Source: a virus (Duplodnaviria; Heunggongvirae; Uroviricota; Caudoviricetes). Taken from it: 64,000 nucleotides of DNA. Shown here in pieces: positions 22,486-42,836 of the stretch (position 1 is the first letter of the stretch; every line of letters starts with the position of its first letter). The notes under the pieces are model-generated. The model had not been told where the DNA came from, searched no databases, and saw nothing but the letters and a program-made list of their open reading frames with translations. The stretch spans positions 105,848-169,847 of IMG/VR virus record IMGVR_UViG_3300020048_000021; one strand, written 5' to 3'. Both the position numbers and the translations under genes were made by a program.

Positions 22486-22491
22486 AACAAC

Positions 22492-22569: not shown

Positions 22570-22578
22570 ATAAATTAC

Positions 22579-22822: not shown

Positions 22823-22825
22823 ATG

Positions 22826-22939: not shown

Positions 22940-22940
22940 T

Positions 22941-23017
22941 GGTGATGTAGCTCAGTTGGTTAGAGCAGGTGCTTCATACGCACAAGGTCAGTGGTTCGAA
23001 TCCACTCTTCACTACCA
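22941..23017 (+). tRNA. tRNA with CAU anticodon (Met or Ile2)
   Basis: acceptor GGTGATG/CTTCACT (one mismatch), D GCTC/GAGC, anticodon loop TTCATAC, T-arm AGTGG-TTCGAAT-CCACT, CCA. Confidence 0.7.
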
Positions 23018-23027
23018 GAAGTTCAGT

Positions 23028-23104
23028 TGGGATATCGCCTAGTTGGTCTAAGGCACTGGTCTTTGAAATCAGTATCGTTGGTTCGAATCCAACTATCCCT
23101 GCCA
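23028..23104 (+). tRNA. tRNA-Gln (UUG)
   Basis: acceptor TGGGATA/TATCCCT (1-72 mismatch), D GCCT/AGGC, anticodon stem CTGGT/ATCAG loop CTTTGAA, T-arm GTTGG-TTCGAAT-CCAAC, CCA. Confidence 0.7.
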
Positions 23105-23124
23105 AAATATAAAAGGAAAATAAA

Positions 23125-23673
23125 ATGAATACTTGGATTACATCTGATCTTCATTTTAGTCACGCGAACATTATGAAATTTTGCCCAGAATCACGGGCAC
23201 GATTTGTGTATGACGGCGTAGACTATATGAACGAAACGATGATTAAAGAATGGAATGAACTGATTGACCCAAATGACTTGACGTATATACTGGGCGATTT
23301 TGCGTTTTGTAACGCTCAAAAAGCAACCGAGATTGCTCGTAGACTAAATGGCACTAAGATTTTGGTAGAAGGAAATCATGATCGTAAATCACTAAACGAT
23401 CCTACATTTCGTAAATGTTTTAAAGAAGTTCACAAATATCTAGATATCAATTATAATGGTACTAAGATTGTGATGCTTCATTATCCAATTGCCGAATGGG
23501 ATCAGATGCATCGTGGAAGTGTTCATTTTCACGGTCATCTTCACGGTAACGTTAGCGGAATGGAAAAGTATCGTTGTCGTGATATGGGAATGGATGCAAC
23601 GGGTCGTATTGCCATTAGCATGGAAGAAGCTATTACAGACGCATTGACTGGTGAAATTAAAAGTCATCACTAG
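23125..23673 (+). CDS. calcineurin-like metallophosphoesterase
   Basis: N-terminal DLHFSH, GDFAF, GNHD motifs of the metallophosphatase fold. Confidence 0.65.
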   Translation: MNTWITSDLHFSHANIMKFCPESRARFVYDGVDYMNETMIKEWNELIDPNDLTYILGDFAFCNAQKATEIARRLNGTKILVEGNHDRKSLNDPTFRKCFKEVHKYLDINYNGTKIVMLHYPIAEWDQMHRGSVHFHGHLHGNVSGMEKYRCRDMGMDATGRIAISMEEAITDALTGEIKSHH

Positions 23674-23728
23674 ACATTAATTAATAATTCTGTTATAATT
23701 AACTCTTTTACACATACTGAGAAAAGAA

Positions 23729-24106
23729 ATGGGCTTTGTAATTAAACTTGATAAACTAGAATGGATAGAATCCATTAGAGCGGCTATTCGTGCAGAAGGG
23801 TGGACTGGTACTTCTGGTTGTAAAGAGTGGGCCAAAAAGACCTATGATGCCACTCTGAATTACAATTGCTATGGTAATATGTCTAGCATTAAGTTTAAGA
23901 CAGAAGAGATATGTCAGAAATTTGCTAAAGTATATGAAATTCCATACTTGACCAATGTACAGAAATTACAGGAAGATCACATGTACAAATTGTTGATGAG
24001 TGTGACTGAACTGTTAGAACGACCATCCTCGAATAGTATTGAGATTATTAAATCTGATATACTCAGTGCCATTAACAATATTAAAGCAACCTACGGAGTT
24101 AAATAA
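23729..24106 (+). CDS. hypothetical protein
   Basis: 125 aa ORF. Confidence 0.4.
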   Translation: MGFVIKLDKLEWIESIRAAIRAEGWTGTSGCKEWAKKTYDATLNYNCYGNMSSIKFKTEEICQKFAKVYEIPYLTNVQKLQEDHMYKLLMSVTELLERPSSNSIEIIKSDILSAINNIKATYGVK

Positions 24107-25014
24107 TGAATTCGTTAGAATTAAAAACCTTCGTTGAAGAAAATCCAAAATTGGTTTCTAAGAAGGTAGCAGGAGATGGAATCTACGTACTGAAATACAA
24201 ACGTCGAGTATTCTATGACAAATTGTGGAATGAATTTCTAGAAGAATGTCGTGGTACTATTGTCGATGAAGATTTTAATGTCGTTGCTCGTCCTTTTACA
24301 AAGATATATAATTTTCGAATCGAAGATAAGTCTCCTGTTTTGTCAGATGATACACTTGTTACCGCTTATCGCAAGGTAAATGGTTTCATGGTCGCAGTGA
24401 CTTGGTACAATGATGACATCTTGGTGTCTACCACTGGGTCTACTGATTCGCCCTATGTTGATATGGCACGTGAAATGATGGTGAAAGAACAGCCATGGGT
24501 CAACTGGGTATCTGCTATCAGCATGAATCAGGGTTACACCATGATGTTTGAGTGTGTACATCCCGACGATCCACACATTATCCCAGAACAAACAGGAATG
24601 TATTTTCTGGGTTGGCGTGAGAACACATGGGACTCTAAGGTCGAGGGATTTGGCGGAACAATTCAAGATCACTGGCAAAAGTATGCGGTGAGTTTCTTGC
24701 GTTGTAAGTGCGCTGAATCTTTTCAGACTTCTATCGATGAACTGGTAGAAATGTCTAAGACTGTTAAGCACGAGGGTTTCGTTTTCTATACAAAAGATGA
24801 AGTGTCGGCAAAGATCAAGTCGCCGTACTATTTGATCAAGAAGTTTGTAGCTCGTAACCCACGTACTGACAAGTTGATGAGAGCAGATATCAAACAATCA
24901 ATAGATGAAGAATACTATCCATTGATTGATCATATTCAAGCAAACATTGTTGAGTATACTGCCCTAGACGAGCAAGCTCGATTGTCATGGGTTCGTGAAT
25001 TTTTGGAGCGATAG
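24106..25014 (+). CDS. rnlA: RNA ligase 1 (T4 gp63 / RnlA-like)
   Basis: segment ECRGTIVDEDFNVVARPFTKIYNF aligns with T4 Rnl1 [28 protein letters not shown]; adjacent to other RNA-repair genes. Confidence 0.65.
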   Translation: MNSLELKTFVEENPKLVSKKVAGDGIYVLKYKRRVFYDKLWNEFLEECRGTIVDEDFNVVARPFTKIYNFRIEDKSPVLSDDTLVTAYRKVNGFMVAVTWYNDDILVSTTGSTDSPYVDMAREMMVKEQPWVNWVSAISMNQGYTMMFECVHPDDPHIIPEQTGMYFLGWRENTWDSKVEGFGGTIQDHWQKYAVSFLRCKCAESFQTSIDELVEMSKTVKHEGFVFYTKDEVSAKIKSPYYLIKKFVARNPRTDKLMRADIKQSIDEEYYPLIDHIQANIVEYTALDEQARLSWVREFLER

Positions 25015-25254
25015 ATGAAAAAGAATAAGGCTAATATCGAACATCAAATTCAATTAAAAAAGGATGAGATCATTAAATATGAAGAGGTAATTAAAAATTA
25101 TCCCCCAGATCGTATGAAAAAATACGGTCAGCCCTATCTTCAACAGTTACATAATGATCTTCAGATTCTACACAATGAATTAGAAGATCGAGAAGGTCGA
25201 CGTGAGATTAAAACAAAATTAGACTATAGTAGAATCGGATTGAACAATATATGA
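25015..25254 (+). CDS. hypothetical protein
   Basis: 79 aa, coiled-coil-like. Confidence 0.4.
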   Translation: MKKNKANIEHQIQLKKDEIIKYEEVIKNYPPDRMKKYGQPYLQQLHNDLQILHNELEDREGRREIKTKLDYSRIGLNNI

Positions 25255-25937
25255 AAATAAAAAGTAACTTTAAAGATTACTATGATCATGTAGCTCATGT
25301 ATACGGTGGAGGAGACCCCAAATTCGTATACGCTCGTTTACCTATTCAGTCAGAACGTTGTACATTAGAACTTAATGACAATCAAATGACTGAACTACGA
25401 ATGAATAGATTGTATAATCATGACTTTGATCATCAATATAACTATCAATATAAGTATTTGGTTATTGCTGGTCGTCGTTATCTCACGGCTTGTAAATGGG
25501 CAAAGAACGAATTGATGCCAATTGATTACAAGTTATGGACAGAAAAGAATTTTCCAGAAGAATATGAACATGCTCGTAATGGACGTAGTTTTTGGTCCCG
25601 TCGCATTAACTATGAAACAGAACTCGGAGGAGAATTCCCAGTTTTAACTGAGATTGCTCATATGATCAATGCTCCGGTATATTCCGTAAATATGGTAAAT
25701 CACAATGTTGGTAGAAACAAAAATCTAATTACAATCGATAGCAATATACCAGTATTAGCTAATTATGAAATACCTACTATCATTACAGCAGAACAATTGT
25801 ATCAAGATTTGTCTTACTACGTATCAAACAAGATGCACACTTCTCCTGATTTGGTAGTCAATGACAATCAAACTAACAAAGAAAAAATTGCTGGACATGG
25901 TTTCGATGTTAAGCAAAGTTTTAGACATAGGAAATAA
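25251..25937 (+). CDS. hypothetical protein
   Basis: 228 aa ORF, ATGA coupling. Confidence 0.45.
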   Translation: MKIKSNFKDYYDHVAHVYGGGDPKFVYARLPIQSERCTLELNDNQMTELRMNRLYNHDFDHQYNYQYKYLVIAGRRYLTACKWAKNELMPIDYKLWTEKNFPEEYEHARNGRSFWSRRINYETELGGEFPVLTEIAHMINAPVYSVNMVNHNVGRNKNLITIDSNIPVLANYEIPTIITAEQLYQDLSYYVSNKMHTSPDLVVNDNQTNKEKIAGHGFDVKQSFRHRK

Positions 25938-25938
25938 T

Positions 25939-26184
25939 ATGAACGAAGAAGATTTAGAATATCGCTTGAGAAAACGTGCTGAGATTCGTAGACAAATACT
26001 GACTCGCAAGAGTGTCATGGAAAATACTCCGGATCGAATAGCGGATCTACTTGAAGAAGCGGCTGCTGAACTTAATCGCTTAAAGATAGAGATCGAACGA
26101 CTTGGTAATCCGACTGATGAAGTTAAACGTTTGACTGAAGAAGTTGAACGATTAAATAACCTTCCAGGTCCAGCCTTTGCATAG
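25939..26184 (+). CDS. hypothetical coiled-coil protein
   Basis: ATG 25939 two nt after upstream TAA. Confidence 0.4.
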   Translation: MNEEDLEYRLRKRAEIRRQILTRKSVMENTPDRIADLLEEAAAELNRLKIEIERLGNPTDEVKRLTEEVERLNNLPGPAFA

Positions 26185-26209
26185 ATAAATACATGACAAA
26201 GGAACTATC

Positions 26210-26551
26210 ATGGAATCAAACTTTCTAAGAAAATATTCAGACATCATCACTGAGATGGAAAATTCAGTAGACGAAGGAATCTTTAGATCAACTAAAGTGT
26301 TTAATAACAAGAAAGGAGAATTGGAACCAGTTGGCGTTGCAACCAAAACTCTTCCGTATTGTAAAAAAATAGTAGCAATGTTGGGCAAATATGGAATTGA
26401 TAGTCAAGTTGAACAAGTAGGTCATGAATTGAATTCACGATACGTAGTTCAATTGGCTAATCCACAAGAAATACAGACCGTAACTGAGTTATTCAATGCC
26501 GGTAAAATCAAGGGATTTGAATTAACTGATGTATGGCCCTCAATGTATTAA
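26210..26551 (+). CDS. hypothetical protein
   Basis: 113 aa ORF. Confidence 0.4.
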   Translation: MESNFLRKYSDIITEMENSVDEGIFRSTKVFNNKKGELEPVGVATKTLPYCKKIVAMLGKYGIDSQVEQVGHELNSRYVVQLANPQEIQTVTELFNAGKIKGFELTDVWPSMY

Positions 26552-26573
26552 CATTTAATTTTGGACAAGTAGT

Positions 26574-27350
26574 ATGAAATTCTTAGTGCAGTTTAATTTA
26601 ATTCATGAAATGGGTCTTGCTCAAGTTCGTGAAGCTATTAGTTCTTACCCACATCAATACGTAAGCGTCATTCCATTCTCTAACGAGATTATCTCTGATG
26701 AGTCGGTTGAAGGCACTGACTATCTTGCTTATGGTAGTACATTGTTTATCAAACTTGGACACGAACGTGGATGGCAGGGTGTTTATTTTGACTATGAGAA
26801 TTTCAATTACGAAACCGCAGTTAAACATCGCACAGATATGCTCAATAATGAAGTTATACTGTCTGCAATCGACGTAATTCCGTTTCTTGAAGAATCTAAA
26901 ACAGATACGTGGTTCATTCGTCCTTCGCTTGATTTAAAGCATTTTAACGGTCAAGTTATCGACAGAGTAGAGTGTATTACATGGCTGAAAGACGCTATGC
27001 AATGTGCTTCTAGTGGGTCATATCAGATATCCGAGGACTTAAAGATTGTATTGGCACAACCAAAAAATATCCAAGCCGAATGGCGATGGTTCATTGTCAA
27101 TGGAAAAGTAGTATCTGGCGCAATGTATCGCTGTCGTGGTCAATTAGTTAAGATTCGTGAGCTAGACAAAGAAGTAATCGACGAAGCACAGAAATTGGCT
27201 GATGGATGGTTACCACATCGTAATTGCGTTATGGATACTGCATTGGTAGATGATAAGTTATCGGTGATTGAGTTCAATTGCATAAACGGTAGCGGATTTT
27301 ATGGACATGATGTTAAAATTATTTTCAAAGAATTGTACGAAAACGCTTGA
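26574..27350 (+). CDS. hypothetical protein (possible ATP-grasp-like fold)
   Basis: 258 aa; weak resemblance only. Confidence 0.3.
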   Translation: MKFLVQFNLIHEMGLAQVREAISSYPHQYVSVIPFSNEIISDESVEGTDYLAYGSTLFIKLGHERGWQGVYFDYENFNYETAVKHRTDMLNNEVILSAIDVIPFLEESKTDTWFIRPSLDLKHFNGQVIDRVECITWLKDAMQCASSGSYQISEDLKIVLAQPKNIQAEWRWFIVNGKVVSGAMYRCRGQLVKIRELDKEVIDEAQKLADGWLPHRNCVMDTALVDDKLSVIEFNCINGSGFYGHDVKIIFKELYENA

Positions 27351-27375
27351 CTTTTATTTCAACGTCATGTATAAT
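27347..27375 (+). promoter_or_regulatory. sigma70-type promoter TTGACT-17-TATAAT upstream of tRNA-Ser
   Basis: TTGACT 27347-27352, TATAAT 27370-27375. Confidence 0.6.
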
Positions 27376-27400
27376 AGTTAAATAGTAGAGTAAGTAATAC

Positions 27401-27488
27401 GGGTAGTTGCCTGAGTGGTTAAAGGAGCAGTTTGCTAAACTGTCGTCCCGAAAGGGGCGCATAGGTTCGAATCCTATACTACCCGCCA
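27401..27488 (+). tRNA. tRNA-Ser (GCU), type II
   Basis: acceptor GGGTAGT/ACTACCC, anticodon stem GCAGT/ACTGT loop TTGCTAA, variable arm GTCCC-GAAA-GGGGC, T-arm ATAGG-TTCGAAT-CCTAT, G73, CCA. Confidence 0.75.
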
Positions 27489-27505
27489 CTAATTTGTAGT
27501 ACACC

Positions 27506-27579
27506 GCAGGATTGGCATATTGGTTGTGTCCTAGCCTTCCAAGCTAGTCAAAGGAGTTCGATTCTCCTATCCTGCTCCA
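27506..27579 (+). tRNA. tRNA-Gly (UCC)
   Basis: acceptor GCAGGAT/ATCCTGC, anticodon stem CTAGC/GCTAG loop CTTCCAA, T-arm AGGAG-TTCGATT-CTCCT, CCA. Confidence 0.75.
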
Positions 27580-27596
27580 ATTTTTATAGGAAGTGC

Positions 27597-27854
27597 ATGG
27601 CTGTAATAACTGAGGATCGTTTAAAACAATTAATGATTGAGGCTGGTGGATCCATTGATGAGAAATCGTGGGCAATTGCTAGAAAGTTTGCCAGTTTAGT
27701 ATTACAAGATAATGCAAGTCTAAATCCGACAGTTAAAAATTTAACAGAAGATGAAATACTAGAATTATGGGATTGGAATAGTGGTGAAATTTTAGCCACT
27801 GACATTTTAGATTTTGCCAATGCTCATTGGCGAGTTTTATCAGGACGTATTTAG
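27597..27854 (+). CDS. hypothetical protein
   Basis: 85 aa ORF. Confidence 0.4.
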   Translation: MAVITEDRLKQLMIEAGGSIDEKSWAIARKFASLVLQDNASLNPTVKNLTEDEILELWDWNSGEILATDILDFANAHWRVLSGRI

Positions 27855-27863
27855 GAGAAGTAA

Positions 27864-28073
27864 ATGGCACAACGTAATCAAGTTAAAGATCCAAACAAAA
27901 CCAAAACTGGTAAACCCAAGTTAGGTGGATTAACAGTAAGTCAACTCACTACTATGGTTGAAAAAGAAGGTAAGAAGAAAATTAAGGCAAAAATTCTTAA
28001 TCGTATTCGTATTGTAACTAGTCGTAAAGGCTATGTAGCACCAGTTATTGTAGTAGAACCTACAGTAGTATAA
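27864..28073 (+). CDS. hypothetical basic protein
   Basis: 69 aa, lysine-rich, RBS AGGAGAAGTAAATG. Confidence 0.45.
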   Translation: MAQRNQVKDPNKTKTGKPKLGGLTVSQLTTMVEKEGKKKIKAKILNRIRIVTSRKGYVAPVIVVEPTVV

Positions 28074-28084
28074 ATAGTATCAAT

Positions 28085-28160
28085 GCCCGGTTAGCTCAGT
28101 TGGTAGAGCAGCTCACTTGTAATGAGAAGGTCGAGGGTTCGACTCCTTTACTGGGCACCA
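28085..28160 (+). tRNA. tRNA-Thr (UGU)
   Basis: acceptor GCCCGGT/ACTGGGC, D GCTC/GAGC, anticodon loop CTTGTAA, T-arm GAGGG-TTCGACT-CCTTT, CCA. Confidence 0.75.
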
Positions 28161-28164
28161 AATA

Positions 28165-29316
28165 TCAAAGCTTGAATAACTTCAAGTGTTCGTGAATACG
28201 GTTCAATGGTTCATCCCAATCGCCAATAGTTGGCTGTCTAAAAATACGACACGATGGATACCACGGACTGTCTTCACGATGTAGTAACCATCTCCAACAA
28301 TTTCCGAATTGATTCAACGGTAGTAACAATGGTTGACCCATTGCACCAGTTAAATGTGCAACAGCAGTATCAATCGATACGACTACATCTAAATTATGAA
28401 TCAATCCCGCAGTATCATTCCAATTTGTAATCGAAAGTGGATACGTGTTTAATCCTAGTTCAATTAATTTATCAGATTGTTCTTGATCGCAGTCAGCTTG
28501 TAAGCTTATCCATTCATAGTTTGGATTACGTTTAACTAATTCAAGCATCTTTTCAAATGGAATAGACTTGTGTTGATTGATCCAACTGTCACGACGACCA
28601 GACCAACAAAACCCAACTCTAAGTTTAGTTTTGGTACCTAATTTTGTTTGCCAATTCTGAATTGATTGTGGGCCAGCACTGATGTATTTTATTTCAGTTG
28701 GAAGATTCTCATACGTAATTTTTAGTACGCCGGGAATACTCATCATTGAAATCCAGTAATCAAATTCTGGTAATATTTCTTCATAAGAGTATACTTGTAT
28801 TGAATCTTTGAACGACATTTTAAACAGTACTTTAAGCACACTTTCACATTGAATAATGACATCTGTGCCTAATAATTTTAATTGTGTAATGAATCGAGAG
28901 AATTGAATATTGTCACCATGACCCTGTTCACACACAATAAGCAATCGTTTATTGTTTAAATCTTCTCCTGACCATCGTGGTTGTTCAAATCGTGGACTTA
29001 ATCCATTCAAGTGTTCGAATTGCCAACGCTTTTCGTATTGCTCCCATCCACGAGTTAAGTCTCCTGATAGTAAATAAGCAACTGCTAAATTGAATTGAGC
29101 TATGCTGTCAGTTGGATCAATGTCAATGGCACATTGCAAGAATCTGATTGCTCTTTCTGGATGTCCCATTTCTCTAATCACATTACCGTAATTGGTATAT
29201 GCAGAACCTAAGTCAGGAAATTGAGCAAATGCTTGGGCATATAAATCAATTGCATCTTTTGGTCGTGAAGTGGCTCTAAAATGAGCGGCTTGTTCAAATA
29301 GTTCTATTAATGTCAT
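28165..29316 (-). CDS. TPR-repeat protein fused to glycosyltransferase family 9 (heptosyltransferase-like) domain
   Basis: N-terminal TPR-like helices; C-terminal EQGHGDNIQFSRF and DTAVAHLTGAMGQPLLLPL resemble GT9 motifs. Confidence 0.55.
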   Translation of the reverse strand: MTLIELFEQAAHFRATSRPKDAIDLYAQAFAQFPDLGSAYTNYGNVIREMGHPERAIRFLQCAIDIDPTDSIAQFNLAVAYLLSGDLTRGWEQYEKRWQFEHLNGLSPRFEQPRWSGEDLNNKRLLIVCEQGHGDNIQFSRFITQLKLLGTDVIIQCESVLKVLFKMSFKDSIQVYSYEEILPEFDYWISMMSIPGVLKITYENLPTEIKYISAGPQSIQNWQTKLGTKTKLRVGFCWSGRRDSWINQHKSIPFEKMLELVKRNPNYEWISLQADCDQEQSDKLIELGLNTYPLSITNWNDTAGLIHNLDVVVSIDTAVAHLTGAMGQPLLLPLNQFGNCWRWLLHREDSPWYPSCRIFRQPTIGDWDEPLNRIHEHLKLFKL

Positions 29317-29671
29317 GCTAATATTTACTATTATTTCATTCGTTAATTATTTTTATCAGTTTGTCCGAATTTCATTGACTTTATAACAGTTATAAAGTAT
29401 AATAGTTTTATTGATTGAGAAGCAATTCTTAAATCAATCGTGAAGTAAAAGGTAGACGAGGGTAGGCACACAAGTCTCTTGAAAAGACTCATCCTAAGCT
29501 TAGCGTCATGTGTCATGATCTGGATCGCTGATCCACCAAATTGTTTATTGTTGATCATGAATATATGAACCACTGTTTATTGTACTTTGAGCATTGTATT
29601 ATGTTTATTGTCCGGTCTATTACTTGACCTTTTGCCACGTTAAATTTACCAATCACCCAAAGAGAGAAAAT

Positions 29672-30250
29672 ATGAATATTACCCTACGTAAAGCATCAGC
29701 ACTACAAAATCGTATCAACGAAACAATCGCTGATATCAGAATGAACCCATACGTAACTCTGAATGAGTTTCAAGATCCATCGACAATGTTACTTAACGCA
29801 AAAACTACATTGTTTGAAAACGATACTCGTCGTCAACGACTGTTATTGACCATGTATACCATTCGTAGTTTAGTAGCAGCAGCTAATTCTGCTTCGGGCG
29901 TAGACTTAAAGCTGGCAACCGCTGCGTACATCGACAAACGAATTGTACAATTAAACGAGTTGGCTGTATTACAACCACAAGAACCACTAAGTGTCATTGA
30001 GGGTCAGCTTGCTAAGCTCAAAGCTCAAGATACGACTAAGAATCAGCGTAGTATGTACGGTTATGATGACGGTGGAGTAAAGACTTCTGTTATTGAGAAT
30101 GAGCAAATCAAAAGATTTAAACAGGAAATTTTGAATTTGAAAAAGCAAAAGCAAGGCATCAATGATGAAGTTCTTGCACTGAATATCAAAACCGAGATTC
30201 CATTGAGTGAAGAATCGGTGGGTATTTTAACAGAAGAAGGTTTGCTATAA
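29672..30250 (+). CDS. hypothetical protein
   Basis: ATG 29672 after RBS AGAGAGAAAATATG; ORF-track start 29594 is upstream of the RBS. Confidence 0.4.
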   Translation: MNITLRKASALQNRINETIADIRMNPYVTLNEFQDPSTMLLNAKTTLFENDTRRQRLLLTMYTIRSLVAAANSASGVDLKLATAAYIDKRIVQLNELAVLQPQEPLSVIEGQLAKLKAQDTTKNQRSMYGYDDGGVKTSVIENEQIKRFKQEILNLKKQKQGINDEVLALNIKTEIPLSEESVGILTEEGLL

Positions 30251-30257
30251 ATAGATA

Positions 30258-30806
30258 ATGACGCCCGATAACATAAATTCAACATTAATTCAGATTGTAG
30301 ACTCGATTGATGTTGAATCTATTGTAGAATGCTTTCAATCTATGAAAGATATTATTCAATTCACTGAGTCTGGTCACAAGGGCAGTCAATCCGGACTTCA
30401 ATATTTATCAGAAGAAGATCCACATACTAGCGCCGTAGGTCGAGGCAAGGGTCGAGATCATGAATACACATCATTAAATCCCTTATTTGTAGGAACCATT
30501 TTCGAAACCATCATTAATAAATATAAGTTCACACGAACCAGATTAATGTGGGTTAATCATATGTCGTGCTATAGTATGCATAGAGATCCTAGTCCACGAG
30601 TACATATTCCTCTTATCACCAACGAACAATGTTATTTTATATTCAAACATGGATTAATACAGCATTTTCCAGTAGGTTATGTGTATTATACTGACACCAG
30701 ACACGATCATACATTTGCAAACTGTTCAGAAGAAAGACGATTACATTTAGTTGGCGCAGTTGATGATAATTGGATAACTGATAGATTGACAATAAATAAG
30801 AATTAA
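30258..30806 (+). CDS. hypothetical protein, possible cupin/2OG-Fe(II) oxygenase-like
   Basis: MHRDPSPRVH and HDH segments. Confidence 0.3.
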   Translation: MTPDNINSTLIQIVDSIDVESIVECFQSMKDIIQFTESGHKGSQSGLQYLSEEDPHTSAVGRGKGRDHEYTSLNPLFVGTIFETIINKYKFTRTRLMWVNHMSCYSMHRDPSPRVHIPLITNEQCYFIFKHGLIQHFPVGYVYYTDTRHDHTFANCSEERRLHLVGAVDDNWITDRLTINKN

Positions 30807-30814
30807 GTTATAAT
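30786..30814 (+). promoter_or_regulatory. sigma70-type promoter TTGACAATAAATA-17-TATAAT upstream of tRNA cluster, overlapping the end of the previous gene
   Basis: TTGACA 30786-30791, TATAAT 30809-30814. Confidence 0.6.
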
Positions 30815-30833
30815 AGTTTTATAGTAAAGAAAT

Positions 30834-30909
30834 GCTCCTCTAGCTCATCGGTTAGAGCAGGAAACTCATAATTTCTTGGTACCGTGTTCGATTCACGGGG
30901 GGAGTACCA
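30834..30909 (+). tRNA. tRNA with CAU anticodon (Met or Ile2)
   Basis: acceptor GCTCCTC/GGGGAGT, D GCTC/GAGC, anticodon stem GGAAA/TTTCT loop CTCATAA, T-arm CCGTG-TTCGATT-CACGG, CCA. Confidence 0.7.
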
Positions 30910-30914
30910 AATAT

Positions 30915-30989
30915 TCGCGCGTAGTTCAACGGATAGAACAGGGGATTTCTACTCCTCTGATGTGGGTTCGATTCCTGCCGCGCGAACCA
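30915..30989 (+). tRNA. tRNA-Arg (UCU)
   Basis: acceptor TCGCGCG/CGCGCGA, D GTTC/GAAC, anticodon loop TTTCTAC, T-loop TTCGATT, CCA. Confidence 0.7.
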
Positions 30990-31013
30990 GAATTCGTAGT
31001 AAATAGAAATAAT

Positions 31014-31098
31014 GCGAGAGTGGTGGAATTGGTATACACAAGGCGCTTAAAACGCCTCGCCGTAAGGATTATGGGTTCAAGTCCCGTCTCTCGTACCA
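31014..31098 (+). tRNA. tRNA-Leu (UAA), type II
   Basis: acceptor GCGAGAG/CTCTCGT, D GTG/CAC with GAATTGGTATA loop, anticodon stem AGGCG/CGCCT loop CTTAAAA, long variable arm, T-loop TTCAAGT, CCA. Confidence 0.75.
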
Positions 31099-31099
31099 T

Positions 31100-31175
31100 G
31101 GATCGTTAGCTCAGCGGTAGCAGCGGCGCCTTTACACGGCGTAGGTCGTAGGTTCGATCCCTACACGATCCACCA
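31100..31175 (+). tRNA. tRNA-Val (UAC)
   Basis: acceptor GGATCGT/ACGATCC, anticodon stem GCGCC/GGCGT loop TTTACAC, T-arm GTAGG-TTCGATC-CCTAC, CCA. Confidence 0.75.
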
Positions 31176-31952: not shown

Positions 31953-32057
31953 TGTTGTAAAAAAACAACACTTTTGCCCCCTTAGTCTTTAGAGACTTTG
32001 GGGGTTTTTTATTGCTCCGAAAATGCTTGACATTAAATCAAAAACAGTCTATAATGT
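31953..32057 (+). promoter_or_regulatory. PeSL-like cassette: palindrome TGTTGTA-N5-ACAACA, rho-independent terminator (31977-32010) and promoter TTGACA(32029-32034)-17-TATAAT(32052-32057)
   Basis: CCCCC...GGGGG hairpin followed by TTTTTT; exact promoter boxes. Confidence 0.65.
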
Positions 32058-32085: not shown

Positions 32086-32355
32086 ATGATTACAGCAGAA
32101 AAATTAGAGCAGTTGCAGAATATCAATGCCGATCAAATGACTAACTTAATGTCTGATTGTGGGTATGATGTTACTTCTGAGCCGTATCTCAACACTTATT
32201 TCGAGGGTGTTACTACTTCTACTGAGAATAAAGTTAACTTCATTTATCAGGGCATGTATTACGATATTCATGTTACACACGCTATTCAGTACGCTCATTT
32301 GATCGTGTCGTTCGATTTGGTGACTGGCAAAACTTCAGTAGACTACTCAGCTTAA
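32086..32355 (+). CDS. hypothetical protein
   Basis: 89 aa, RBS AACGGAAGAAAAGATG. Confidence 0.4.
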   Translation: MITAEKLEQLQNINADQMTNLMSDCGYDVTSEPYLNTYFEGVTTSTENKVNFIYQGMYYDIHVTHAIQYAHLIVSFDLVTGKTSVDYSA

Positions 32356-32368: not shown

Positions 32369-33238
32369 ATGATCACGGTACGCGGCTTTGAAGATAAATT
32401 CTGGACATTTCCCGGTGGGGAACGTTCAGTCAAATTAACCCCGAATGAAAAACAAATTGCTACACAACGAGTTTTTGATGCCACGCCCGCTGGCGAATGG
32501 CCTGTATTTGAAATGCGTATGGACTTTCGTGGTTCAGACGATTTAGTGGATATGATGCTGGCAGTAAACGCTCTACGCAATGCGTATGGGCATGAAATTG
32601 AGTTAACATTGAATGTGCCATATTTCCCATTCTCTCGTCAAGATCGTGTGATGACTGGTGGAGAGTCGTTTGGACTTCAAGTGGTTGCTGATATGATTAA
32701 ACTGTGCAATTTCAAACGTGTTACTACGCTTGATATTCACAGTGATGTAGCTCGCGCAATGTTCCCAGCAGGCGTGTTTGGGAATGTATCGCAAGACACA
32801 GTGTGGGCTACTCGCATCAAAGACTTGACACACTTGGCAGAGTTGGAACTCAACGGAAAAACCGTTATTGTATCGCCTGATGCCGGCGCACTCAAGAAAA
32901 TTTACAAAGTAGCCGCTGCTACAGGATTGCCAGTAGTAGAGGCTAAAAAGATTCGTGACGTTGCCACAGGGCACATTGTCAAGACTGAAATTGATGGCTC
33001 ACAACTTAGTGAGTTTGAACAAGTAGTTATCGTTGACGATATTTGTGACGGTGGACGTACATTCGTAGAACTTGGTAAAGTCATTCGTGATAGCGGGTTT
33101 CGGGGTAGATTAGTACTGTGTGTAACTCACGGTATTTTCTCGAAAGGTCTGGATGTGTTTACTGAGTACTTTGATGAAATTCACACAGTAAACAATATCG
33201 GTGGGGTTGATCTGGTCGCATTTAATAGTGTAAAGTAG
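32369..33238 (+). CDS. ribose-phosphate pyrophosphokinase (PRPP synthetase)-like enzyme; candidate ADP-ribose pyrophosphate synthetase (Adps) of NARP1
   Basis: PRPP-synthetase/PRTase-type architecture including VVIVDDICDGGRTF PRPP-binding loop; directly upstream of NAMPT-like gene. Confidence 0.6.
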   Translation: MITVRGFEDKFWTFPGGERSVKLTPNEKQIATQRVFDATPAGEWPVFEMRMDFRGSDDLVDMMLAVNALRNAYGHEIELTLNVPYFPFSRQDRVMTGGESFGLQVVADMIKLCNFKRVTTLDIHSDVARAMFPAGVFGNVSQDTVWATRIKDLTHLAELELNGKTVIVSPDAGALKKIYKVAAATGLPVVEAKKIRDVATGHIVKTEIDGSQLSEFEQVVIVDDICDGGRTFVELGKVIRDSGFRGRLVLCVTHGIFSKGLDVFTEYFDEIHTVNNIGGVDLVAFNSVK

Positions 33239-33267
33239 TTGACAATAAATCAGTATTTTGATATAAT
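33239..33267 (+). promoter_or_regulatory. sigma70-type promoter TTGACAATAAATC-17-TATAAT in front of the NAMPT-like gene
   Basis: TTGACA 33239-33244, TATAAT 33262-33267. Confidence 0.6.
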
Positions 33268-33298
33268 ATTTACATAGACTAAAGAAAAGGAAAAGAAA

Positions 33299-34798
33299 AT
33301 GAAAATTACAGCACTCACTTCAATGGACTCGTACAAACTGGGTCACGGGGAAATGTACCCCGAAGGCACTACTAAAGTTTACTCAAACTTTACTCCACGT
33401 TCGCTCAAGCATTTGAACATGCCTGATCACTGGAAAGCAGATAACAAAATTGTTTGGTTTGGATTGCAAGGTTTTCTGCACGAACTCAACACAGTTTGGA
33501 AAGAGACATTTTTCGATTTACCCGAAGATGAAATTTGTGACGAGTTTCTTGAATTCGTAGCACCATTTGTCGGGCCCAACGGTTTCAATATTGAACGTAT
33601 TCGTGAATTACATCGTATTGGATACTTGCCACTTGAAATCAAATCTCTGCCAGAAGGATCACGAGTGCCGATTGGTGTGCCAGTATTGACGGTTACTAAC
33701 ACTGTAGCATCAGCATTTTGGTTGCCTAACTTTCTTGAAACATGGCTCTCTGCTGAGTTGTGGAAATCATCGACTTCTGCCACAATGGCACGAGTATATC
33801 GTAAAATTATCGACTCATACGCTGATGCTACAGGCGGCAGCAAAGAGTTTGTCGTATGGCAAGGTCATGACTTCTCAATGCGTGGCATGTCCGGTATTGC
33901 CGATGGTGCAAAATCGGGTGCTGGTCATTTGTTGAGTTTTCTTGGAACTGACGTACTATCAGCAGTCAAGTATGTCAACGACTACTACCATGGTAAATCA
34001 ACCTTTGTTGGTGGTTCGGTGCCTGCTAGTGAGCATAGCGTAATGAGTTCTTCTAGCCGTGATGCTGAGTTGGATACATATCGCTACATCTTGAGCAAAT
34101 ACCCAAGTGGTGTTGTCTCACTTGTATCAGATACATACGACTTTTTCCAAGTGATCACAACATACGCCACGATTCTCAAAGATGATATTCTGAATCGTAC
34201 TCCTGACTCACTTGGCTTGGCTAAAGTTGTGTTTCGTCCTGATTCGGGTGATCCAGTCAAGATTATCACTGGCGATCCAGAGGCACCAGCGGGTTCACCT
34301 GAACATAAAGGTGCTGTTGAATGTTTGTGGGAAATCTTTGGTGGCACAGTAAACAATAAAGGGTACAAAACTCTGAATCAACGTGTTGGTCTTATCTACG
34401 GAGATTCGATTACCATTGAGCGTTGCAAAGATATCCTGTTTATGTTGGCCGCTAAAGGATTCGCAAGTGACAACATTGTATTTGGTATCGGTTCGTACAC
34501 GTATCAGTTTGCTACTCGTGACTCGCTTGGGTTTGCTATGAAAGCTACTCATCGTGTTACTAACGGCGAAGGTGTTGCTATCTTTAAGGATCCTAAGACT
34601 GATTCTGGTACTAAGAAATCTGCTCGTGGCTTACTGTGTGTACATCGTAGCCCACTCTCAGGTGACTATGTATTAGTTGATGGTGTCACAGTAGAAGCCG
34701 AACGTTGTGGTGAGTTGAAGACTGTGTTTCTTGACGGTCAGATTCTTGTTGACGAGACATTTGAAACTATTCGTAAAAGGTTGACAGATAATGCTTAA
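33299..34798 (+). CDS. nicotinamide phosphoribosyltransferase family protein (NadV/NAMPT-like; candidate Namat of NARP1)
   Basis: 499 aa with N-terminal TSMDSYKLGH-type NAMPT motif and overall NAPRTase/NAMPT family length and layout. Confidence 0.7.
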   Translation: MKITALTSMDSYKLGHGEMYPEGTTKVYSNFTPRSLKHLNMPDHWKADNKIVWFGLQGFLHELNTVWKETFFDLPEDEICDEFLEFVAPFVGPNGFNIERIRELHRIGYLPLEIKSLPEGSRVPIGVPVLTVTNTVASAFWLPNFLETWLSAELWKSSTSATMARVYRKIIDSYADATGGSKEFVVWQGHDFSMRGMSGIADGAKSGAGHLLSFLGTDVLSAVKYVNDYYHGKSTFVGGSVPASEHSVMSSSSRDAELDTYRYILSKYPSGVVSLVSDTYDFFQVITTYATILKDDILNRTPDSLGLAKVVFRPDSGDPVKIITGDPEAPAGSPEHKGAVECLWEIFGGTVNNKGYKTLNQRVGLIYGDSITIERCKDILFMLAAKGFASDNIVFGIGSYTYQFATRDSLGFAMKATHRVTNGEGVAIFKDPKTDSGTKKSARGLLCVHRSPLSGDYVLVDGVTVEAERCGELKTVFLDGQILVDETFETIRKRLTDNA

Positions 34799-34976
34799 AG
34801 CACTACTATCATTTATAGCATTATTTTGGGTATTTTATTATGGTATTATCGGACTCAGGTTTGTTACCAAAAAGCAAGCATGGGAGTGGACTAAAGTTTT
34901 AACAATTAGCGCAGTATGTTCTGCATTATCCATCGTAGTATTAACAACTTTCGTTATTTTATTCTAAGGAAATTAT

Positions 34977-35774
34977 ATGAAACAAATTTTTAAATTAGCA
35001 ATCGTAGCAGGTCTAATCGCAACCACAGTTGGTTGTACCCGTATTGAAACCGGCGAAGTCGGTGTACGAGTTGGCTTTGATAAACAGGTAAAACCAGGTG
35101 AATTGATGCCAGGTTCATTCAATCAAACCTTAATCGGTGATGTACTTACATTTCCTATCCGTGATGTGTCAGTTAAGATTGATAACATGACTCCCTTGGC
35201 TCAAGACAACAGCACCATGAAAGACATGGATGTCACTGTTATCTACAACATCACTCCCGCACAGGTTAGTGAATTGTATGTGAGCAAGAACCGTAGCTTC
35301 CACGTTGTCCACAACGGCGATACTTATTTGATGTACAACTACATATTCAATGCCGCACGAAATGCTGCCTACAAAGCTGCTCGTAAGTATGACGCATTGA
35401 CCATGAACGACAGTCGTGCCCAAATGGAACAGGACATGAAAGAAATCATTGCCAAGACATTGGCTGATGAAAATCTTGCGGGATCAATTACCGTGAGTCA
35501 AGTTCTTATTCGTGCCCTTACACCGGCGGATTCTGTTGTGGCAAGTGCCAACGAATTGGTTCGCTCCAAGAATGAATTGCTGCAAAAAGAAGTTGAAGTT
35601 AAGACCGCCGAAGCAGAATCTCGTCGTATGGCAGCACTTACCAACCAAAGCTCAGCCAGCATTGCTTACATGAACGCTCAGGCTGCGTTGAACATCTCTG
35701 AAGGTGTTAAGAACGGCAAAGTCCAGACTATTATTGTTCCAAGCAATATGACTGGTTTGATGATTGGAAAATAA
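34977..35774 (+). CDS. SPFH/band-7-like lipoprotein
   Basis: signal peptide with lipobox VGC, then TGEVGVRVGF... pattern typical of SPFH domains. Confidence 0.45.
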   Translation: MKQIFKLAIVAGLIATTVGCTRIETGEVGVRVGFDKQVKPGELMPGSFNQTLIGDVLTFPIRDVSVKIDNMTPLAQDNSTMKDMDVTVIYNITPAQVSELYVSKNRSFHVVHNGDTYLMYNYIFNAARNAAYKAARKYDALTMNDSRAQMEQDMKEIIAKTLADENLAGSITVSQVLIRALTPADSVVASANELVRSKNELLQKEVEVKTAEAESRRMAALTNQSSASIAYMNAQAALNISEGVKNGKVQTIIVPSNMTGLMIGK

Positions 35775-36825: not shown

Positions 36826-36978
36826 ATGGAAACACAACAGCTATTAAACGAAGGTATTCTCAGATTTGGAATTGAATCACGAGATGTCTCAGTGGATGGA
36901 CACTGGGTGGGTGTAATTTGGAATGAAGTATGGCGACTCGCCGGAATTATTGTCGATGGAGAAACTAATGACAACACG
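36826..36978 (+). CDS. hypothetical small protein (50 aa)
   Basis: ATG 36826 after upstream TAA; below ORF-track cutoff. Confidence 0.3.
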
Positions 36979-37411
36979 TAGAGGATTTTTACAAACAATG
37001 GGGGCAGTATTCGGGTCAACAGTGCTGCCAGCAGGGGCAGTCGCGTCTGTAGCGTCAGCAGCACCCGTAGCAGAAGTAGCGGTTGGAGTAATGGCAGCGG
37101 CCGCAGTTGTTCGACAGTTCAAAACATCAATGGTACTTGACCCACAAACACTTGAGCCAAAAATTGCTGTTTCCGTTACAGAAAATGGAGAGAGACACGC
37201 TCTAGCTGGTTGTACATATTTAAATGAGGTCAAGATTGATGGCAAAACCCCATTGGAATTTATCGATAATTCAACACCTGAGAAACGTCAAGAATCACAA
37301 AATCTATTAGATGTGGTTGTTATTCGTGAGCAACTTGAACGTCAGGGTTTACCGCCATTGACCGACTTTGAGGCCGCGCTGCTCATGGCACGAGAAGGAG
37401 AAACAGCATGA
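36968..37411 (+). CDS. exported protein with twin-arginine (Tat) signal peptide
   Basis: N-terminus MTTRRGFLQTMGAVFGSTVLPAGAVASVASAAP fits the S/T-RRxFLK Tat motif with AxA-like cleavage region. Confidence 0.5.
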   Translation: MTTRRGFLQTMGAVFGSTVLPAGAVASVASAAPVAEVAVGVMAAAAVVRQFKTSMVLDPQTLEPKIAVSVTENGERHALAGCTYLNEVKIDGKTPLEFIDNSTPEKRQESQNLLDVVVIREQLERQGLPPLTDFEAALLMAREGETA

Positions 37412-37878
37412 GTCAATATAAATTCTTTTGGAGTGGACCATTCAGTCAATGGTTCAAGAGTTCATTCGTTATTGATGGAAAAACATTCAATACGTGTGAA
37501 CAGTGGATGATGTGGAACAAAGCTATGTTATTTCAAGATACTGAAATTGCAGATGCTATTCTTGCAACGTCTGATTCTAAAAAACAAAAAGCATTGGGTC
37601 GTCAAGTTAAAAACTTTGTAGATTCAGTTTGGATGAACGTCGCATATGACATCGTTGTCCGAGGCAATCGTGCCAAGTTTGAACAGAATCCAGAACTATA
37701 TAGCGAATTAGAAAAGACCAAAGGTCTGACTCTAGTTGAAGCTAGCCCACTTGACAAACGATGGGGAATTGGAATGGCTGAAGATGAAGAAGGAGTCGAA
37801 GACTCTGCAAATTGGAAAGGTGAGAATTTGCTAGGTAAAGCAATTACTCAAGTTCGTATGGACATGTTTCAAAGTTAA
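37408..37878 (+). CDS. NADAR (YbiA-like) domain protein
   Basis: FFWSGPFSQWF... CEQWMM... VVRGNRAKFEQNPEL... LVEASPLDKRWGIG matches conserved NADAR/DUF1768 blocks. Confidence 0.65.
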   Translation: MSQYKFFWSGPFSQWFKSSFVIDGKTFNTCEQWMMWNKAMLFQDTEIADAILATSDSKKQKALGRQVKNFVDSVWMNVAYDIVVRGNRAKFEQNPELYSELEKTKGLTLVEASPLDKRWGIGMAEDEEGVEDSANWKGENLLGKAITQVRMDMFQS

Positions 37879-39986: not shown

Positions 39987-40041
39987 TGTTGTTTTTATAC
40001 AACAGTCATAAGTTGACAATAAATCGATAATCGATTATAAT
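39987..40041 (+). promoter_or_regulatory. PeSL cassette: palindrome TGTTGT-N-ACAACA + promoter TTGACA(40013-40018)-17-TATAAT(40036-40041); ATG only 6 nt downstream
   Basis: sequence read. Confidence 0.65.
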
Positions 40042-41804: not shown

Positions 41805-42836
41805 ATGAGAAAGATGGCAACAATTCGTCGTATTGACGAACTAAACCCTATTGAGGGTGCTGATAAAATTGAAGTGGCTACCGTTGGTGGATGGAAAGTC
41901 GTGTGTCAGAAAGGATTGTATGTAGTTGGCGATCTAGCGGTATATTGTGAGATTGATAGTTTCATTCCCACTGCCATTGCTCCATTCCTGACTCGCGACG
42001 GGCATTACCCCAAGACGTATGAAGGTATTGAAGGTGAACGTCTTCGCACTATCAAGTTGCGTGGGCAAATCTCTCAAGGATTGTTACTGCCCTTGAGTGT
42101 TCTTGCTGTTAATACTTCTTCAGGTGATTATCTTGGTGACTGGGAACAGTTTGAGAATGAAGATGTAAGTGAGAATCTTGGCATCGTCAAATACGAACCG
42201 CCAATGTCAGCACAACTTGCTGGTGTCGCTCGTGGTAATTTCCCAAGTCAGATTCCAAAGACTGATCAAGAACGTTGTCAGAATCTGAAGCGTGAGATTT
42301 CTCAAGCTGGTGATACTACGTTCGAGGTTACTGAAAAGTTAGACGGTTCATCAATGACTGTATATCTGATTGATGGTGTCTTTGGTGTATGTTCACGCAA
42401 TCTTGATCTGAAAGAAAGTGAAGGAAATACTTTTTGGAAAGTTGCTCGTGAGTTGGATCTTGAAACTAAGATGCGGACTATGGGTGATAACTTTGCTATT
42501 CAAGGTGAACTAATTGGCGAAGGAATTCAAAAGAATATCTACGAAATCAAAGGTCATAAATTCATGGTATTCGATATCTATGATATTGTCGTGGGTGATT
42601 ATATGATTCCAGACATGGTTCGTACTATCTGCAAAATGCAGAACTTGAACCACTGTCCTGTTATTCTGCCTCACGGTTCAGTAAATCATACTATCGATGA
42701 ACTGCTTGAATTAGCAGAAGGAAAGTCTGAGCTGAATGTCAAGACTGAGCGTGAAGGTTTAGTATTCAAGGCAGTGAATGGTAGTTTTACATTCAAGGCT
42801 ATCTCAAATAAATTCTTATTAAAGCACGGGGATTAA
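41805..42836 (+). CDS. ATP-dependent RNA ligase (KxDG nucleotidyltransferase superfamily, Rnl2-like)
   Basis: motif I EKLDGSSMTVY; N-terminal OB-like region; RBS AAGGAAATATTATG. Confidence 0.55.
   Translation: MRKMATIRRIDELNPIEGADKIEVATVGGWKVVCQKGLYVVGDLAVYCEIDSFIPTAIAPFLTRDGHYPKTYEGIEGERLRTIKLRGQISQGLLLPLSVLAVNTSSGDYLGDWEQFENEDVSENLGIVKYEPPMSAQLAGVARGNFPSQIPKTDQERCQNLKREISQAGDTTFEVTEKLDGSSMTVYLIDGVFGVCSRNLDLKESEGNTFWKVARELDLETKMRTMGDNFAIQGELIGEGIQKNIYEIKGHKFMVFDIYDIVVGDYMIPDMVRTICKMQNLNHCPVILPHGSVNHTIDELLELAEGKSELNVKTEREGLVFKAVNGSFTFKAISNKFLLKHGD

Follow-up and report, generated by a model that had tools for sequence, protein, structure and literature searches.

A gene pair of the Adps-Namat type, predicted to form a NARP1 module, in an uncultivated large-phage lineage

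NARP1, the NAD+ reconstitution system composed of Adps and Namat, is known from roughly 4% of phages. Both NAD+ reconstitution as a counter-defence and the presence of NARP1 on bacterial chromosomes have already been published, and the pair described here is an ordinary new example. The system of the Bacillus phage SpβL1 was reported by Osterman et al. 2024, and its Namat structures (9w5x/9w5w) by Lan et al. 2026. In the E. coli phage Bas63, NARP1 corresponds to genes 79-80 and was validated in vivo against SIR2-HerA, while the NrsA/NrsB pair of the Vibrio phage ICP1, from which the Adps structures of Liu et al. 2026 were obtained, counters Nezha in V. cholerae.

The window, the 64-kb stretch of phage DNA analyzed here, carries two intact genes on the plus strand that very probably constitute such a module. 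The upstream gene, adps (32369..33238), encodes a 289-aa PRPS-like protein, the predicted ADP-ribose pyrophosphate synthetase; namat (33299..34798) follows after a gap of 60 nt and encodes a 499-aa Nampt-like protein, the predicted nicotinamide ADP-ribose transferase. The first-pass annotation had placed both ORFs at exactly these coordinates and had proposed a NARP1 candidate, and the layout, the clades, the selectivity-clamp (SCH) motif, the PP loop, the catalytic residues, and the lost C-terminal module all fit that proposal. Its caution that sequence alone cannot tell Prs/NadV from Adps/Namat is outdated, since the structural papers of 2026 (PMC12774641, PMC13586617) have made the two separable at the sequence level. 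The resulting sequence rules, namely, the Namat SCH motif, the Adps PP loop, and the C-terminal truncation, sort the new pair cleanly without experiments, and the two genes are better named Adps and Namat than Prs and NadV.

As a NARP1 module, the pair would act in two steps. The predicted reaction of Adps is an ATP-dependent pyrophosphorylation of ADP-ribose at its free ribose, yielding ADPR-PP; Namat, for which a preference for ADPR-PP over PRPP is expected, would then exchange this pyrophosphate for nicotinamide, giving NAD+ directly. Since ADP-ribose and nicotinamide are the very products released by NADase defence effectors of the SIR2, TIR, and SEFIR types, the pair should keep NAD+ available in hosts with NAD+-depleting defences, such as SIR2-HerA, type I Thoeris, DSR1/2, and SEFIR, and thereby benefit the phage. 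A prediction that follows is that the hosts of the source phage use NAD+-depleting defences.

Family names alone would suggest another function. The upstream protein matches Pribosyltran/Pribosyltran_N and TIGR01251 (ribose-phosphate diphosphokinase), and the downstream one matches NAPRTase and NAMPT_N as well as NF006629 at 531 bits, the homologies of both having E-values of 1e-33 to 1e-159, far past chance. Such Pfam and NCBIfam names are in line with canonical salvage, in which a true PRPP synthetase feeds a true nicotinamide phosphoribosyltransferase and the NMN formed is turned into NAD+ by host NadR, NadD, or PncC routes or by an unseen phage Nmnat. We consider this highly improbable. 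Among the Prs models, the window Adps clears only the broad TIGR01251, and that by 1.7 bits (114.7 against a cut-off of 113); with the remaining models it scored 54 to 100 bits against cut-offs of 296 to 536, falling short by 180 to 480 bits. The validated Bas63 Adps gave similar values, 138.5 bits with TIGR01251 and 100.8 bits with NF002320 (100.3 for the window Adps), whereas E. coli Prs reached 422.7 and 532.6 bits, respectively. In addition, the Adps of SpβL1 gave no product in a PRPP-synthetase assay. We rejected phrog_619 as an Adps marker, since it gives 193 bits with E. coli Prs as well.

Residue mapping onto the ICP1 Adps pointed in the same direction. The predicted catalytic lysine of the window Adps is K194 (K162 in SpβL1, K185 in ICP1), and the ADPR-site residues are F14, R90, H124, D171, D223, and D224. 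The PP loop reads C226-D-G-G-R-T231 and is followed by the lid residue F232, while the Prs counterpart is IDTGGTL; DGGRT stands in place of the DTGGT ribose-5-phosphate loop expected for canonical salvage. A remodeled PP loop with a lid Phe is the Adps type described by Liu et al. 2026, the ICP1 Adps having been structurally characterized (PMC13586617), and CDGGRTF is the most frequent form among the viral homologues (34 of about 70). Bas63 Adps, although only 35% identical overall, shares an identical PP-loop block, DDICDGGRTFVE. ICP1 Adps (34% identity) has CDGAAS where the window has CDGGRT, but both start with Cys-Asp-Gly, and the catalytic Lys, the F, R, H, D, and DD of the ADPR site, and the lid Phe are common to the two. 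F92 and F223 of ICP1 Adps are replaced by Met and Glu in the window protein, exactly as in Bas63 Adps, and all invariant functional residues of ICP1 Adps are kept. Only 31 residues follow THGIFS in the window Adps, compared to 34 in ICP1 Adps, likewise truncated, and 61 in E. coli Prs, so that the C-terminal alpha11-alpha12 module of PRPS is missing. The hallmarks of a housekeeping class I Prs are thus absent from the window protein, with the equivalog and subfamily models failed, no DTGGT loop, and a truncated C terminus. Moreover, 39 columns of the clade alignment are at least 80% conserved, and the window protein has the consensus residue in every one of them.

The clamp of the second protein is of the Namat type. 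The published SCH signature of Namat is GSX-phi-X-phi-X-phi-TRD with aromatics at positions 3 and 7 (PMC12774641), and the window sequence, G398-S-Y-T-Y-Q-F-A-T-R-D408, fits it, phi-3 being Ala where Asn or Val is usual. The Bas63 motif, GSYTYQYMTRD, is near-identical. This aromatic clamp, missing from true Nampts, again argues against canonical salvage. Of the 20 residues that contact NAD+ in the structure of SpβL1 Namat, 17 are identical in the window Namat, including R313 (R306 of SpβL1), D218, and F192, and the other 3 are conservative, with Y400 and F404 being aromatic swaps of SpβL1 F392 and Y396. The catalytic core is intact (F192, D218, H246, R313, and D315, by reference to F189, D215, the catalytic His, R306, and D308 in SpβL1 numbering). 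Overall, the window Namat is 50% identical to that of SpβL1 over 474 aligned residues, with the same gene order, the same type of SCH motif, and no large insertion, 46% identical to that of ICP1, and 43% identical to that of Bas63, from which it differs by lacking an insertion of about 90 residues. The Bas63 genes have the same order as those of the window and a similarly short gap (45 nt).

A comparison of both proteins with Adps/Namat and Prs/NadV profiles, suggested beforehand as a check, came out in favor of NARP1: the Prs-profile scores of the upstream protein were at the level of Bas63 Adps, about 430 bits under E. coli Prs, and the downstream protein reached 469 and 426 bits with Namat structures (469 bits with SpβL1 9w5x/9w5w), compared to 226 to 236 bits with Nampts (Xcc, mammalian). 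A T4-like stand-alone Nampt showed the reverse, with best PDB matches to true Nampts (357/315 bits) and 163 to 174 bits to Namats; T4-like proteins stood in here for the Nampt of KVP40, while Bas63 and ICP1 served as Adps references. These T4-like Nampts and NARP2 (Nampt plus Nmnat, the type of the Vibrio phage KVP40) share with the window protein a homologous Nampt fold and more NAD+ as the end result, but identity is about 32% and GGGLLQxxxRD takes the place of the aromatic clamp. A point in favor of canonical salvage is that Namat enzymes can still make NMN from PRPP in vitro (PMC12774641).

One loop of the window Namat is less typical. According to the SCL rule, this loop supplies the residue that stacks on the adenine; its third residue is R, K, or Y, and with Lys or Tyr in that place stacking falls to the fourth. 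The window SCL reads S35-L-K37-H38, Lys then His, resembling Bas63, in which Lys is followed by an aromatic or His; stacking acts across the dimer. In SpβL1 the stacking residue is Arg40, and the window loop is 7 residues longer. In close relatives the third residue is Ser and only the following His or aromatic is conserved. The longer SCL, distinctive of the window clade, the unconserved stacking residue, and a strong promoter of its own, separate from that of adps, raise the question of whether the Namat of this clade might have changed its preferred donor or taken on two roles, which would make it a functionally distinct NARP1 variant and not a plain orthologue. Such a variant might, for example, make considerable amounts of NMN from PRPP under ADPR shortage or accept a modified ADPR-PP. 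We regard this as very unlikely.

Phylogenetic analysis separated both proteins from their canonical counterparts. Clustering with housekeeping PRPP synthetases, named in advance as an outcome that would speak against NARP1, was not seen: 33 Namat-linked proteins split from cellular Prs in 100% of 200 neighbor-joining (NJ) bootstraps, the outgroup being three cellular Prs sequences of which two are core fragments. The Adps-linked proteins also split from the Nampts in 100% of 200 NJ bootstraps, and both splits are at odds with canonical salvage. With bacterial sequences included, the window clade (the window and relatives L008-L014) was nested within the range covered by Bas63, SpβL1, and ICP1; without the bacterial sequences it was basal with 25% support, deep branching in the Namat clade being weakly supported. 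Gene linkage followed the same division. Of 80 viral loci with a relative of the window Namat, 72 had an Adps-like gene on the same strand, the SCH aromatic was found in all 76 readable motifs of these loci, and a 94%-identical relative had the same two-gene layout. In contrast, the stand-alone Nampt loci had GGGLLQ in 8/8 cases and a Prs-like gene within 8 kb in 0/8.

At the nucleotide level, the region matched none of 50,697 phage genomes searched, and the lineage is reachable through its proteins only. With this pair, the carriers of NARP1 come to include a divergent lineage of uncultivated large phages. A search of a genome collection gave no hint of a host or prophage, the best bacterial identity being 57%. 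The best "phage" match, Acinetobacter phage MD-2021a (H41), was considered as a prs-nadV-nadM salvage operon and rejected, its third gene being NrtR and not NMNAT; the H41 contig looks bacterial, and its nadV bears the Namat motif.

The nearest sequences beyond the window's clade were bacterial chromosomal pairs, with Namat identities of 52 to 57%. Among the bacterial related loci, an Adps-like gene was present in 77/80 and an NrtR-type Nudix regulator adjoined in 75/80. NrtR is said to have been described by Rodionov and co-workers in 2008 as responsive to ADP-ribose. The linkage of bacterial Adps-Namat pairs to such a regulator points to a homeostatic function within cells, and the NARP1 chemistry of the phage pair might likewise have as its main role the recycling of ADP-ribose and nicotinamide set free by ordinary NAD+ turnover or by NAD+-consuming reactions of the phage itself, so as to support a prolonged jumbo-phage infection. 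A role of this kind has been discussed for bacterial NARP1 by Lan et al., and also consistent with it is a gene for a NADAR-domain protein, a family tied to ADP-ribose chemistry, 2.6 kb downstream of the pair (37408-37878). We nevertheless find it unlikely that recycling is the main function, since in Bas63, Fado, and engineered SBSphiJ, the loss or gain of NARP1 mattered against NAD+-depleting defences only, ADPR-PP was seen in the tested phages only with a defence present, and the study of Nezha in V. cholerae called ICP1 NrsAB an NAD+-regenerating system. The NADAR gene, moreover, was found in only 1 of 80 related viral loci, and since this linkage is not conserved in relatives, we rejected NADAR as a functional partner. 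Recycling and counter-defence are compatible and not mutually exclusive. The bacterial prs-nadV-nrtR operons (e.g., Acinetobacter; Lan et al. 2026) resemble the window pair in their aromatic SCH, CDGGxTF PP loop, and gene order, but they are chromosomal, lack phage-type consensus promoters, and nearly always carry the NrtR gene, which does not accompany the window pair.

We then considered whether further NAD+-related genes accompany the predicted module. Among the matches listed in Pfam scans of the 110 window ORFs, which for the third batch comprised 25 of 27 matched families, there were none to the NMNAT, Nudix, Macro, RyR, PnuC, and NadR families. This leaves the window without an Nmnat (PF01467 or Nudix) of the kind expected for NARP2, while an Adps is present and the clamp is of the Namat type, and without the PnuC-like nicotinamide riboside transporter and bifunctional NadR-like enzyme of NARP3, which belong to different protein families. 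The lack of an Nmnat in the 64 kb searched, out of a phage genome of probably about 265 kb, also speaks against canonical salvage; relative L013 lies on a contig of 264.6 kb. Nor did the listed matches for the 110 ORFs include, at E ≤ 0.001, the NARP1-AP and RyDEP accessories PF01661, PF14519, PF20016, and PF02026, in a HMMER scan less sensitive than the HHpred search of the source paper. With no gene for Adpp (a Macro-domain phosphatase) or RyDEP (a RyR-domain glycosidase) in the window, the pair corresponds to the bare two-gene form of NARP1.

A small gene, orf89 (32086..32355, plus strand, 89 aa), ends 13 nt before adps and is probably cotranscribed with it. Its homologues fall into 7 clusters only, all at least 72% identical, and it precedes adps in L008, L013, and the P0001 contig, while L009/L010 lack it. 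The AF2 model is confident (pLDDT 91.7); fold matches were to uncharacterized phage proteins only, PDB matches had E ≥ 0.08, and neither profile nor predicted fold gave a Macro or RyR match. As an ORFan with no informative fold match, it is not claimed as a third component of the pathway.

Finally, we examined the transcription signals of the locus. A hairpin (GCCCCC...GGGGG) followed by a U-tract at 31976..32011 on the plus strand resembles an intrinsic terminator; the fold of 31953-32026 has an energy of -23.4 kcal/mol (z = -3.58), and none of 200 shuffles folded equally well. As read from the sequence, it would end the transcript of the upstream RNaseH-like gene and mark the 5' boundary of the unit. 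A perfect plus-strand sigma-70 consensus promoter (TTGACA-17-TATAAT, 12/12 match) follows at 32027..32055, 5' of orf89 and adps. The consensus promoter that the first-pass annotation had noticed between the two genes is equally perfect (12/12), with an extended -10 TG, and occupies 33239..33267 on the plus strand within the 60-nt gap, with an AAGGA ribosome-binding site between it and namat. It would give namat its own start site beside transcription from upstream of adps. Since 16 perfect copies of TTGACA-17-TATAAT occur across the window, all on the plus strand (chance expectation, 0.08), this promoter is nothing special to the gap. Among the relatives, L011 and L012, with gaps of 35 nt, have no promoter between adps and namat, L013 has a near-consensus one, and the perfect promoter is kept in L008, L009, L010, and L014. 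The source phage itself is large and tRNA-rich and probably represents a jumbo-phage lineage.

Phage operons labeled Prs plus Nampt have been found to encode two other enzymes, Adps, which converts ADPR and ATP to ADPR-PP, and Namat, which converts ADPR-PP and nicotinamide to NAD+; together they form NARP1 (Osterman et al., bioRxiv 10.1101/2024.02.11.579819). In that work, the Adps clade was phage dominated, separate from cellular Prs and 97% Namat linked, and Nampt homologues without Adps formed a separate clade partnered with Nmnat (NARP2). The first-pass annotation had proposed a NARP1-type module made of two open reading frames, and both were found on the + strand: adps (32369-33238; 289 amino acids) with phosphoribosyltransferase and PRPP-synthetase domains and a match to TIGR01251, and namat (33299-34798; 499 amino acids) with NAPRTase and NAMPT_N domains and a match to NF006629 at 531 bits. 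The gene content, residues, clades and linkage of the pair are established in this analysis, and judging from these the proposal appears right: the pair very probably carries NARP1 biochemistry, as a divergent and unsurprising new example of a known system. What is inferred, from homologues with 34 to 50% identity, are the enzymatic activities, the substrate preference and the counter-defense benefit.

In the profile comparison suggested in the first-pass annotation, the window Prs-like protein scored like the validated Adps of E. coli phage Bas63 and unlike E. coli Prs, with 100.3, 100.8 and 532.6 bits, respectively, against NF002320 and 114.7, 138.5 and 422.7 bits against TIGR01251. The family phrog_619 failed as a discriminator (238 bits for the window protein, 333 for Bas63 Adps and 193 for E. 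coli Prs). The solved structure of Adps from Vibrio phage ICP1 assigned the catalytic K185 and the ADPR-site residues, showed a remodeled PP loop binding ATP, and marked the lack of the C-terminal alpha11-12 module as a signature of the family (Liu et al., PMC13586617). By residue mapping, K185 corresponds to K194 of the window protein, F18 to F14, R87 to R90, H121 to H124, D161 to D171, D212/D213 to D223/D224 and the lid residue F221 to F232, while ICP1 F92 and F223 are replaced by Met and Glu, as they are in Bas63. The PP loop reads CDGGRT in the window and in Bas63, compared to CDGAAS in ICP1 and IDTGGT in Prs. Beyond THGIFS the window protein has just 31 residues left, compared to 61 in E. 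coli Prs, indicating that the C-terminal module is absent. In an alignment of 33 Namat-linked Prs-like proteins, the window Adps harbors the consensus residue at every one of the 39 columns with conservation of 80% or more.

Two elements make up the selectivity clamp of Namat: the SCH motif, GSX-phi-X-phi-X-phi-TRD, in which positions 3 and 7 are aromatic, and a variable loop, SCL, which provides one more stacking residue (Lan et al., PMC12774641). The window SCH, G398-S-Y-T-Y-Q-F-A-T-R-D408, fits this motif and resembles those of Bas63 (GSYTYQYMTRD) and Bacillus phage SpβL1 (GSFTYQYNTRD), whereas a stand-alone T4-like Nampt, Xcc Nampt and human NAMPT display G[GS]G[GA]LLQxxxRD at this position. 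Among the 20 NAD+-contact residues of SpβL1 Namat, 17 are identical in the window protein and the other three are conservative (R40 to K37, followed by H38; A362 to S370; F392 to Y400); SpβL1 Y396 corresponds to F404, so that the aromatic is kept. Against solved structures, the window Namat reached 469 bits for 9w5x/9w5w, which are SpβL1 Namat, and 426 for 9ke8, versus 226 to 236 bits for the Xcc and mammalian Nampts, and the stand-alone Nampt gave the reverse pattern (357/315 versus 163 to 174 bits). The single soft spot among these tests is the SCL, which is 7 residues longer than that of SpβL1. Its third and fourth positions are Lys-His, a Bas63-like arrangement; in close relatives the third position is Ser, and only the His/aromatic that follows it is kept.

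Neighbor-joining trees (Kimura distances, 200 bootstraps) separated Adps-linked Nampt-like proteins from true Nampts, and Namat-linked Prs-like proteins from cellular Prs, each with 100% support and with the window on the NARP1 side. The window and its relatives L008, L009, L013 and L014, plus L011 and L012, formed a clade with 100% support; its position in the Namat clade, poorly supported in the tree without bacterial sequences, was within the Bas63/SpβL1/ICP1 span, beside a Burkholderiales sequence, once these were added. In an independent test of this association, the 80 IMG/VR loci closest to the window Namat included 72 with an Adps-like gene in the same orientation, in most cases as the immediate upstream neighbor; six of the eight others have at most 507 nt of upstream DNA, and L046 and L076 have about 1.9 kb. 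All readable SCH motifs of these 80 loci were aromatic (76/76). Stand-alone Nampt loci carried the GGGLLQ motif in 8/8 cases, and none of the eight had a Prs-like gene within 8 kb. In the T4-like Aeromonas phage CC2 (L006), an Adps-like gene (425-1222) lies seven genes upstream of a Nampt-like gene (3016-4527). The Nampt-like product has a deviant SCH region (GSWGFLKNSSRD) and forms a basal branch of the Namat clade; it may therefore represent an intermediate or degenerate form.

The top phage-database match (54.5%) was L004 (CAKLQF020000015.1, "Acinetobacter phage MD-2021a"), in a prs-nadV-"nadM" operon; although filed as phage, this record looks like a bacterial chromosome. Its third gene, annotated as "nadM" or "bifunctional NMNAT/ADPR pyrophosphatase," encodes instead an NrtR regulator with Nudix and NrtR_WHD domains. 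Scanning species-representative genomes yielded 80 bacterial loci (52 to 57% identity), of which 77 had an Adps-like gene with a CDGGxTF loop, 75 an NrtR-like gene and 56 the order Adps-Namat-NrtR; their SCH motifs were aromatic in 68 of 72 readable cases. These loci agree with the functional bacterial NARP1 already published (Lan et al., PMC12774641), and such prs-nadV-nrtR operons suggest regulated ADPR-to-NAD+ recycling in bacteria. That even these loci bear NARP1 signatures weakens the reading of the window genes as a canonical Prs/Nampt salvage pair, which we consider highly improbable. The same chromosomal loci keep a homeostatic role in play, but that NARP1-type chemistry serves mainly NAD+ housekeeping here is still unlikely.

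As for other NARP forms (ALTERNATIVES), no NMNAT, Nudix, Macro, RyR, PnuC or NadR family was among the matches listed in Pfam scans of 110 window ORFs (25 of 27 matched families displayed in batch 3; the window is part of the genome), so within the window this is bare NARP1 and not NARP2, NARP3, NARP1-AP or a RyDEP-extended form. In the proposed NARP1 mechanism, NADase effectors would set free ADPR and nicotinamide, and Adps (K194, PP loop 226-231) would move the beta,gamma-pyrophosphate of ATP onto the ADPR 1'' hydroxyl. Namat (core F192, D218, H246 and R313) would then join ADPR-PP and nicotinamide into NAD+, with a clamp formed by Y400, F404 and K37/H38 supplied by the partner subunit. NARP1 is present in about 4% of sequenced phages; the pair is of use in annotation and hints at the defenses of the host.

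The consensus promoter reported between the two genes is present in the 60-nt gap (33239-33267, +; 12/12 TTGACA-17-TATAAT, the -10 element being extended by TG), with an AAGGA ribosome-binding site behind it. Chance would give 0.08 perfect TTGACA-N17-TATAAT promoters in the window; 16 occur, from 6762 to 63976 (for example at 40013-40041), without exception on the + strand. Most of them have the extension TTGACA[AGT]TAAATC in common, indicating a genome-wide, phage-specific promoter family not peculiar to this gap. Another one (32027-32055, +) follows a strong terminator-like hairpin (31976-32011, +; z = -3.6) and precedes orf89 (32086-32355, +; 89 amino acids), which ends 13 nt before adps. 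The local order is thus terminator, promoter, orf89, adps, promoter, namat; orf89 shares its upstream promoter with adps and is probably cotranscribed with it. It is a lineage-restricted ORFan (seven homologue clusters), and its confident AF2 model (pLDDT 91.7) has an alpha+beta fold of two helices and a four-stranded sheet matched by uncharacterized phage proteins only (BFVD A0A6J7WJ92, TM 0.94; Rhizobium phage RL38J1, TM 0.76). We do not count orf89 within the NARP1 pathway.

The window DNA is that of a phage without a close sequenced relative: megablast of the region against phage genomes gave no match, and all tblastn matches to Adps or Namat were below 60% identity. The closest relatives are metagenomic, with one protein 94% identical on a 53.9-kb contig (P0001, JGI 3300059473) and IMG/VR loci L008 to L014 77 to 97% identical; the 264.6-kb contig of L013 suggests a jumbo phage. 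On P0001, a homologue of the anti-CBASS protein Acb1 lies about 5 kb downstream of the pair, hinting at an anti-defense neighborhood; the Acb1 family was not among the matches listed for window ORFs in Pfam scans. The window also contains an rIIA-like gene and, shortly before the pair (11447-31175), several clusters with 32 tRNA genes in all. Among them are a tRNA-Ile(tat) that is unusually long at 95 nt (22391-22485) and an aberrant call whose anticodon has 2 nt (18452-18522). Two ligases, one T4 Rnl1-like and one Rnl2-like with an OB domain, and a metallophosphoesterase (24106-25014, 41805-42836 and 49815-50603) resemble an RNA-repair set, which fits this large tRNA complement; an AAA_33 kinase-like protein lies within 41.8-64 kb.

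Directly 3' of namat are a 58-amino-acid membrane ORF (34791-34967) and an SPFH/Band-7 lipoprotein (34977-35774), an order repeated on the 338-kb contig of L096 (12354-13338; Adps 65% identical) and missing from L013 and the 94% relative. A NADAR-domain protein (37408-37878; E = 3e-46), close in theme to ADP-ribose chemistry, is encoded 2.6 kb downstream of namat; it was rejected as a linked partner, being present in 1 of 80 viral loci. The 162-amino-acid ORF at 36923-37411 has no Pfam match, and its N terminus (…TTRRGFLQTMGAVFGSTVLPAGAVA…) resembles, by eye, an export signal of the twin-arginine type, an unusual feature for a phage protein. At 48019-49173 the window encodes a porin of the Gram-negative type (Porin_4, E = 4e-44) and at 49188-49736 a protein of the OmpA family, and in L096/L097 such a pair lies immediately upstream of Adps (L096 8061-9868).
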